This document shows positions 4,559 to 5,718 of a stretch of DNA of 64,000 bases, piece after piece. This DNA comes from Escherichia coli (GTDB taxonomy: Bacteria > Pseudomonadota > Gammaproteobacteria > Enterobacterales > Enterobacteriaceae). The first letter of the stretch is position 1. Each line of letters begins with the position of its first letter. The position numbers and the translations under genes were made by a program. The notes beneath the pieces were generated by a model. That model made no database searches. It was not told where the DNA came from and saw only the letters and a list, made by a program, of their open reading frames with translations. The stretch is from the NCBI RefSeq assembly GCF_003019035.1, contig NZ_CP027447.1; one strand, written 5' to 3'.

Positions 4559-4873
4559 ATGCAATTTACGGTATACTGCAGTCGCGGCAGGAACGCCGCG
4601 TTTCCCTTTGTTATCGATGTTACCAGCGACATTATTGGTGAGATTAATCGCCGTATCGTTATTCCATTAACACCTATTGAACGATTTAGCCGTATTCGCC
4701 CACCAGAACGGCTTAATCCAATCCTTTTACTGGTAGATGGCAAAGAATATGTGCTCATGACGCATGAGACTGCAACTGTTCCAGTTAACGCGCTGGGAAC
4801 GAAATTTTGCGATGCCAGCGCGCACCGAACGTTGATTAAAGGAGCATTAGATTTTATGCTCGACGGGATTTAA
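4559..4873 (+). CDS. ccdB: gyrase-poisoning toxin CcdB (chromosomal ccd module)
   Basis: 104-aa ORF MQFTVY...RIVIPL...DFMLDGI; resembles F-plasmid CcdB (MQFKVY...MFWGI, ~101 aa, recalled from memory); stop overlaps apaH stop on the opposite strand. Confidence 0.85.
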
Positions 4874-5718
4874 GACGCGGCCGCCTCTCCCTCACCCATA
4901 TCTTTATGCCGATTCGACGGCTGGACAAAATACTGTTTATCTTCCCAGCGCAGGCAGGTTAATGTCCCGCCCCAACAGCAGCCGGTATCCAGCGCGTAAA
5001 TACCTTCCGGCGTACCTTTGCCCTCCAGCGATGCCCAGTGACCAAAGGCGATGCTGTACTCTTCAGCGACGGGGCCAGGAATCGCAAACCACGGTTTCAG
5101 TGGGGCAGGGGCCTCTTCCGGCGATTCTTTGCTGTACATATCCAGTTGACCGTTCGGGAAGCAAAAACGCATACGGGTAAAGGCGTTGGTGATAAAACGC
5201 AGTCTTCCCAGCCCCCGCAATTCCGGTGACCAGTTATTTGGCATATCGCCGTACATGGCATCAAGGAAGAAGGGATAGGAGTCACTCGACAGCACCGCTT
5301 CTACATCGCGCGCGCACTCTTTGGCGGTCTGCAGATCCCACTGCGGCGTGATCCCGGCGTGGGCCATCACCAGCTTTTTCTCTTCGTCGATTTGCAGCAG
5401 AGGCTGGCGACGCAGCCAGTTAAGCAGCTCGTCGGCATCCGGCGCTTCCAGCAGCGGTGTCAGGCGATCTTTCGGTTTATTGCGGCTGATCCCGGCAAAT
5501 ACCGCCAGCAGATGCAGATCGTGATTGCCCAGCACCAGACGTACGCTGTCGCCTAAGGATTTCACATAGCGCAGAACATCCAGCGAACCCGGGCCGCGCG
5601 CGACCAGATCGCCCGTCAGCCAGAGGGTATCTTTCCCAGGGGTAAATTCTACTTTATGCAGCAATGCGATCAGTTCATCGTAACAACCATGAACGTCGCC
5701 AATAAGGTATGTCGCCAT
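4870..5718 (-). CDS. apaH: bis(5'-nucleosyl)-tetraphosphatase (symmetrical) ApaH
   Basis: 282-aa [28 protein letters not shown]...; matches E. coli ApaH. Confidence 0.95.

Follow-up and report, generated by a model that had tools for sequence, protein, structure and literature searches.

The ccdB toxin gene of a chromosomal toxin-antitoxin pair and the apaH gene of Escherichia coli converge so closely that their stop codons overlap. This raises the question of how two coding regions came to end inside one another, whether the arrival of the toxin-antitoxin genes altered the end of either protein, and whether the arrangement ties the expression of the two operons together. Here, the window is the whole 64,000-nucleotide stretch of E. 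coli contig NZ_CP027447.1 that was analysed, and all positions refer to it. The locus very probably holds a standard chromosomal ccdO157-type ccdAB cassette that lies flush at the apaH stop codon, with neither protein end altered.

The ccdB and apaH genes end in a common TTAA palindrome

The gene order at the locus is kefC, folA, ccdA and ccdB, followed on the opposite strand by apaH, apaG, rsmA and pdxA. The features that matter for the junction are the following:

3758-4237, + strand: folA, dihydrofolate reductase, the left flank of the cassette (Pfam DHFR_1, 3.1e-60; folA in the annotation of E. coli SCU-301)
4238-4322, + strand: folA-ccdA spacer (alignment, sequence and hairpin scan)
4323-4556, + strand: ccdA, antitoxin of 77 aa (Pfam CcdA, PF07362, 3.6e-26; RefSeq "type II toxin-antitoxin system CcdA family antitoxin")
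4559-4873, + strand: ccdB, toxin of 104 aa (Pfam CcdB, PF01845, 4.6e-31, profile positions 1-101 of 101)
4870-4873, no strand: TTAA palindrome holding both TAA stops, the right edge of the cassette (sequence and alignment)
4870-5718, - strand: apaH, symmetrical Ap4A hydrolase of 282 aa (ORF; Pfam Metallophos, 8.5e-17; 276 of 280 residues identical to K-12 ApaH)

On the + strand, positions 4862-4873 read GAC GGG ATT TAA, which puts the ccdB stop at 4871-4873. The minus-strand ORF of apaH (4870-5718) closes with a TAA that is the complement of TTA at 4870-4872. Both stops are where an earlier, sequence-only reading of this DNA had placed them, and its count of 4 bp common to the convergent genes is likewise borne out: with the stops counted, ccdB and apaH have TTAA (4870-4873) in common, within the stretch TCGACGGGATTTAAGACGCGG at 4860-4880. 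The two stop codons overlap each other by 2 nt (4871-4872), and the sense codons of the two genes do not overlap at all.

The full folA-ccdAB-apaH stretch was found in 2,021 of 5,426 complete E. coli genomes, and colinearity across the ccdB/apaH junction holds in at least 2,019 of the 5,426. The same junction occurs in E. albertii and in a second species representative named E. coli. The layout is therefore not a feature of chance or of assembly.

The cassette encodes a complete CcdAB pair

The features expected of a CcdAB type II toxin-antitoxin system are present, namely a full-length CcdB, a CcdA directly upstream on the same strand, and folA and apaH as flanks. The ccdA stop (4554-4556) and the ccdB ATG (4559) are separated by a 2-nt gap. 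By family assignment, CcdB would act as a gyrase poison and CcdA as its labile antidote. The identity of the neighbouring apaH as the orthologue of the K-12 gene is supported by synteny (rsmA-apaG-apaH) and by the 99% identity of the two proteins.

CcdB ends in ...LDGI, and its terminal Gly-Ile aligns with the ...WGI of F-plasmid CcdB, so the end of ccdB is native, neither truncated nor extended. Of the gyrase-contact residues W99-G100-I101 of the F protein, the glycine and the isoleucine are kept and the tryptophan is replaced by aspartate, as in all ccdO157-type proteins. Residue 7 of CcdB (4577-4579) is Cys here and Arg in O157:H7, CFT073 and E. albertii.

The folA-ccdA spacer contains a GTATAC palindrome (4285-4290) and an AGGAG ribosome-binding site (4309-4313). 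The palindrome resembles the operator bound by F-plasmid CcdA, and we take it to be a putative operator. A promoter scan upstream of ccdA found no sigma-70 consensus, and hairpin scans of the spacer found neither a strong hairpin with a U tail nor a convincing terminator.

Two variants of the cassette were seen among related genomes. In E. coli YZLc1-3 (L087:710-1011) a 13-bp deletion puts ccdB out of frame but leaves ccdA and the junction with apaH untouched, which illustrates the toxin decay that the literature describes. The cassette of the E. albertii type strain is 1 bp shorter than that of the window, near the ccdA/ccdB boundary.

Three spacer types break at the same position

Passages in PMC7232551, PMC7167474 and PMC3184786 (citing Mine et al. 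2009) locate ccdAB between folA and apaH, in an intergenic region that is called "plastic" and that spans 77 bp in K-12. Among complete E. coli genomes, this spacer exists in three states: a REP-bearing type (~2,850 genomes), the ccdAB type (~2,020) and a type with a CcdA fragment, a hypothetical gene and a DUF4291 gene (~540). K-12 represents the first, with folA, a 77-bp spacer holding a REP hairpin (-22 to -24 kcal/mol) and an apaH of 843 nt. The third, found in 537 of the 5,426 genomes, runs folA, CcdA C-terminal fragment, 155-aa hypothetical protein, DUF4291, apaH.

All three types break exactly at the apaH stop. In the alignment, homology among them starts exactly at TTAA, and megablast matches of ccdB-less genomes begin at position 4870. 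On the folA side, homology with the K-12 spacer stops about 10 nt past the folA stop (~4247). These two limits define the ccd-specific DNA as ~4248-4869.

In the third spacer type, the C-terminal fragment of the CcdA family is 45-59 aa long and only 43% identical to the CcdA of the window (E. coli PM22, L084:2090-3500; L085; L003). Its DUF4291 gene (8.7e-68) and the hypothetical gene are co-directional with apaH, and the DUF4291 ATG lies 24 nt past the apaH stop. The 155-aa hypothetical protein gave no Pfam or PADLOC match, and no PADLOC match was found for the cargo proteins of this spacer type as a whole. The O39:NM strain F8704-2 (L003:1486-2466) carries IS621, of the IS110 family, between folA and the CcdA fragment. 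The content of this spacer type suggests a second, independent insertion of a ccd-family system at the same site, later overwritten.

Other genera also carry cargo here. The apaH-folA spacer of Pseudocitrobacter (L030:3475-4110) encodes a PRiA4_ORF3-family protein (2.6e-46), and similar proteins are encoded in an Enterobacteriaceae MAG (L074:2328-2942) and in Superficieibacter (L029:3394-5583); the start of a protein in the Superficieibacter spacer is similar to that of the E. coli DUF4291 protein. Use of the hot spot is thus not limited to Escherichia.

We propose that about 620 bp of cassette DNA (~4248-4869) replaced the whole of a short ancestral spacer that carried a hairpin or REP element, and that the replacement reached right up to the apaH stop codon. 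With both genes ending in TAA and the junction falling inside that codon, the result would be a TTAA palindrome that reads as a stop on both strands. CcdB retains the ...GI terminus of its family, and ApaH its ancestral length of 282 aa. We infer that the 4-bp overlap is a neutral by-product of the flush junction. The borders of the cassette showed no target-site duplication, no inverted or terminal repeat and no recombinase.

Loss of the spacer hairpin and possible transcriptional coupling

Among the best 80 species matches, the apaH-folA spacers of relatives have a median length of 49.5 nt, and 63 of the 64 short ones fold at -10 kcal/mol or stronger. Such a spacer is typically a single GC-rich hairpin or REP element common to both convergent genes. 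The ccd cassette removed this ancestral element. The sequence-only reading had held that the overlap leaves no room for separate terminators, and this stands: zero intergenic DNA is left, and neither the consensus scan nor the hairpin scan detected a stem with a U-tract, the mark of a canonical intrinsic terminator, in the several hundred nt past the ccdB stop on the + strand or the apaH stop on the - strand. The strongest apaH-sense structure past the apaH stop lies inside ccdB:

4788-4823, - strand: hairpin of -17.1 kcal/mol with no U tail (ViennaRNA hairpin scan)

This hairpin could serve as a candidate 3'-end stabiliser or pause site. A terminator-like hairpin was also seen on the + strand at 4583-4600 (CGCGGCAGGAACGCCGCG then TTTCCCTTTG), among the first 15 codons of ccdB. 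The region as a whole holds three terminator-like sites, against 3.0 expected in shuffled sequence; with no excess over shuffled sequence, the 4583-4600 hairpin may be due to chance.

Overlapping convergent ccd and apa transcripts are plausible from this layout. With the ancestral hairpin gone, transcripts of the apa operon and of ccd probably enter each other's antisense strand, where we would expect them to be ended by Rho or by weak structures. A stronger reading, compatible with the replacement that we propose, is that the cell exploits the overlap: convergent transcription, through interference or antisense RNA, would place the apa operon and ccdAB under mutual control and would tie the expression of Ap4A hydrolase to the toxin-antitoxin balance. 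We regard such exploitation as unlikely. It draws on the loss of a strong hairpin that 63 of the 64 relatives' short spacers possess, on the lack of a canonical terminator past either stop, and on a junction that is invariant in ~2,020 genomes and in E. albertii. This invariance is trivial, however, as both stop codons need TTAA. The frameshifted ccdB of some genomes argues against a selected regulatory role, and so does the description of the ccd system as decaying in a passage of PMC2654758 (citing Mine 2009).

The data on Rho bear on both sides. A literature search on an apaH-folA terminator gave only indirect data from K-12, where long apaH-strand transcripts that span folA to fixA are seen only in the absence of Rho (PMC5909445). 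This finding, which speaks for coupling, suggests that Rho normally limits apaH-strand antisense read-through. Antisense RNA that is not translated should, on the other hand, soon be terminated by Rho, which speaks against it. The most specific form of the idea is that, through the loss of the hairpin, read-through from surA-pdxA-rsmA-apaG-apaH would run antisense to ccdB and ccdA and read-through from ccd would run antisense to apaH, so that the balance of gyrase toxin and antitoxin would be wired to Ap4A hydrolase. We consider this wiring slightly less probable still than exploitation of the overlap in general; if true, it would apply to the ~37% of E. coli that carry ccd.

The 282-aa ApaH is the ancestral form

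The sequence-only reading had noted that ApaH has 282 aa here against 280 aa in K-12, which is correct (the K-12 gene has 843 nt), and had taken this to suggest that the insertion remodelled the 3' end of apaH. The C-terminal alignment that it called for shows that the stop and the four codons before it (AAAS) equal those of K-12, whose tail aligns as KDLGE--AAAS; the sequence at the apaH stop, TTAAGACGC, is common to both. The proteins differ at an internal site:

4885-4896, - strand: GGT GAG GGA GAG codons of apaH, Gly-Glu-Gly-Glu (alignment, outgroup C-termini and chimeric queries)

K-12 and all genomes of the REP type lack 6 of these 12 bases, giving GE instead of GEGE. This in-frame 6-bp indel, five codons upstream of the apaH stop, accounts for the whole difference between 282 and 280 aa.

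The polarity of the indel was determined from the apaH loci of 80 species-representative genomes, the best tblastn matches, a set that does not include E. fergusonii. ApaH has 282 aa in 64 of the 76 loci with both genes and, within the ccd-less Enterobacteriaceae species of the same set, in 62 of 74 loci. The ccd-less carriers of the 282-aa form include Klebsiella, Enterobacter, Raoultella, Kosakonia, Salmonella and Citrobacter. Their tails are of the ...GEGEA(V/A)AS type overall, and many read ...LGEGEAVAS. Among the matches listed, a 280-aa ApaH occurs in only one species locus, that of Escherichia sp. E1V33, which also has a K-12-type REP spacer. Since ccd-less relatives mostly have 282 aa, this length is ancestral and the K-12 length reflects a derived loss of one Gly-Glu. 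The third E. coli spacer type, which has no ccdB, also carries a 282-aa ApaH, and the 282-aa form is thus independent of ccdB adjoining apaH. Judged from these alignments, the 280-aa ApaH of K-12 is a derived allele that has lost one GGNGAR (Gly-Glu) repeat unit.

Within E. coli the indel and the spacer type go together. In the 5,426 complete genomes, the 280-aa form is confined to the ccd-less, REP-bearing spacer type. A query from the 3' end of apaH aligned without gaps from the stop codon in 2,573 genomes, and the remainder align only past the indel. Recombinants were sought with two chimeric junction queries against the complete E. coli genomes. The chimera of the ccdB tail and the K-12 apaH end found no ungapped match in them; its best matches align 85 query bases over 91 record bases, with the 6-bp gap and 91.2% identity. 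For the chimera of the K-12 spacer tail and the apaH end of the window, no record covered at least 80% of the query. As neither chimera was matched, the 6-bp deletion is completely linked to the REP spacer, which is unsurprising at a distance of ~15 bp. Differences from K-12 thin out with distance from the junction, from 14 columns within the 100 nt of apaH that adjoin it to about zero past 600 nt. This gradient fits haplotypes that are old and linked, combined with an ApaH tail that is under little constraint and differs between species.

The reading in which the arrival of ccd rewrote the apaH 3' end, with two residues gained and a new C-terminus or stop, is accordingly hard to sustain, and we judge it very improbable. 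The different lengths here and in K-12, the perfect association of the indel with spacer type in 5,426 genomes and the cluster of differences next to the junction (0-3 per 100 nt farther away) would all be expected of such an event. The association is nevertheless simple linkage over ~15 bp, the stop and the last four codons are those of K-12, and the supposedly new GEGE-type end is the usual one where ccd is lacking, in Klebsiella, Enterobacter, Salmonella, Citrobacter, Kosakonia and other genera, and the ccdB-less E. coli spacer type also has an ApaH of 282 aa. A non-ancestral ApaH end confined to carriers of the insertion was not found; the outgroups and the third spacer type assign the length change to the REP/K-12 lineage. 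The proposal of remodelling is refuted, and the replacement of the spacer by a flush cassette accounts for the locus with both protein ends intact.

The idea that the overlap is an annotation artefact from a wrong frame or stop codon has next to no chance of being right, as both ORFs end where full-length Pfam domain or orthologue alignments end, and PGAP gives the same coordinates in several genomes (the same overlap in RefSeq SCU-301, identical across the region; the same 4-bp CDS overlap, with an apaH of 849 nt, in O157:H7 SS52 and CFT073).

Other features of the window

As its reverse complement, the window matches E. coli SCU-301 (NZ_CP051751.1) except for about four substitutions and a 2-bp indel. 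The indel falls in leuC (~35040-36440, - strand), where two extra bases at 35133 give an unbroken frame of ~466 codons; leuC is annotated as frameshifted in SCU-301. In the SCU-301 annotation, sgrT (34186-34316) is also frameshifted. The same annotation lists the T3SS effector genes espY1 and espY2, with a transposase fragment beside espY1, and, between araD and polB, three small genes for hypothetical proteins (12973-13926, 20528-21660 and 31640-32209 cover these genes). At 60799-60889 on the + strand, where the chromosomal ftsA and ftsZ genes meet, there is a sense-oriented match of 102 bits to Rfam PssrA (RF02797), a family whose name, "plasmid-encoded Shigella sRNA A", makes this placement odd.

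Significance

The analysis makes a small addition to what is known of this locus, namely which ApaH length is the derived one, and that the length polymorphism is perfectly linked to spacer type. K-12, the usual reference, has the derived 280-aa ApaH, and the ccd-bearing strains keep the ancestral 282-aa form. Transcriptional coupling is the only part that could add biological interest; otherwise the result matters little.

Comparison with known systems

The locus is the published ccdO157 arrangement, ordinary and already known. Passages in PMC7232551, PMC7167474, PMC3184786 and PMC2654758 (citing Wilbaux et al. 2007 and Mine et al. 2009) describe ccdO157 as the chromosomal ccdAB of O157:H7 between folA and apaH. 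The window agrees with it in locus, gene order, 4-bp ccdB/apaH overlap and 282-aa ApaH. Its CcdB is 97% identical to that of O157:H7, differing by R7C, S10G and V28E, and 99% identical to that of CFT073, with the single substitution R7C. The ApaH tail reads ...AAAS here and ...AVAS in the second E. coli-named representative (L005) and in the DUF4291-type genomes.

With F-plasmid ccdAB, the window shares the Pfam families, the antitoxin-then-toxin operon and the terminal Gly-Ile of CcdB. Identity to F CcdB is only ~36-37%, however, and the position of F Trp99 is Asp in the window, a replacement noted for ccdO157-type CcdB in PMC7232551. Unlike the F-plasmid addiction module, the ccd genes here are chromosomal, and the chromosomal system has been reported not to stabilise DNA (PMC2654758).

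The K-12 folA-REP-apaH locus is flanked by the same genes and shares the sequence context of the apaH stop. It differs in having a 77-bp REP-hairpin spacer instead of the 620-bp cassette, and a 280-aa ApaH with the derived 6-bp deletion. The third spacer type of E. coli occupies the same hot spot, with its junction exactly at the apaH stop and an ApaH of 282 aa; it differs in lacking ccdB and in carrying cargo that is co-directional with apaH rather than converging on it.
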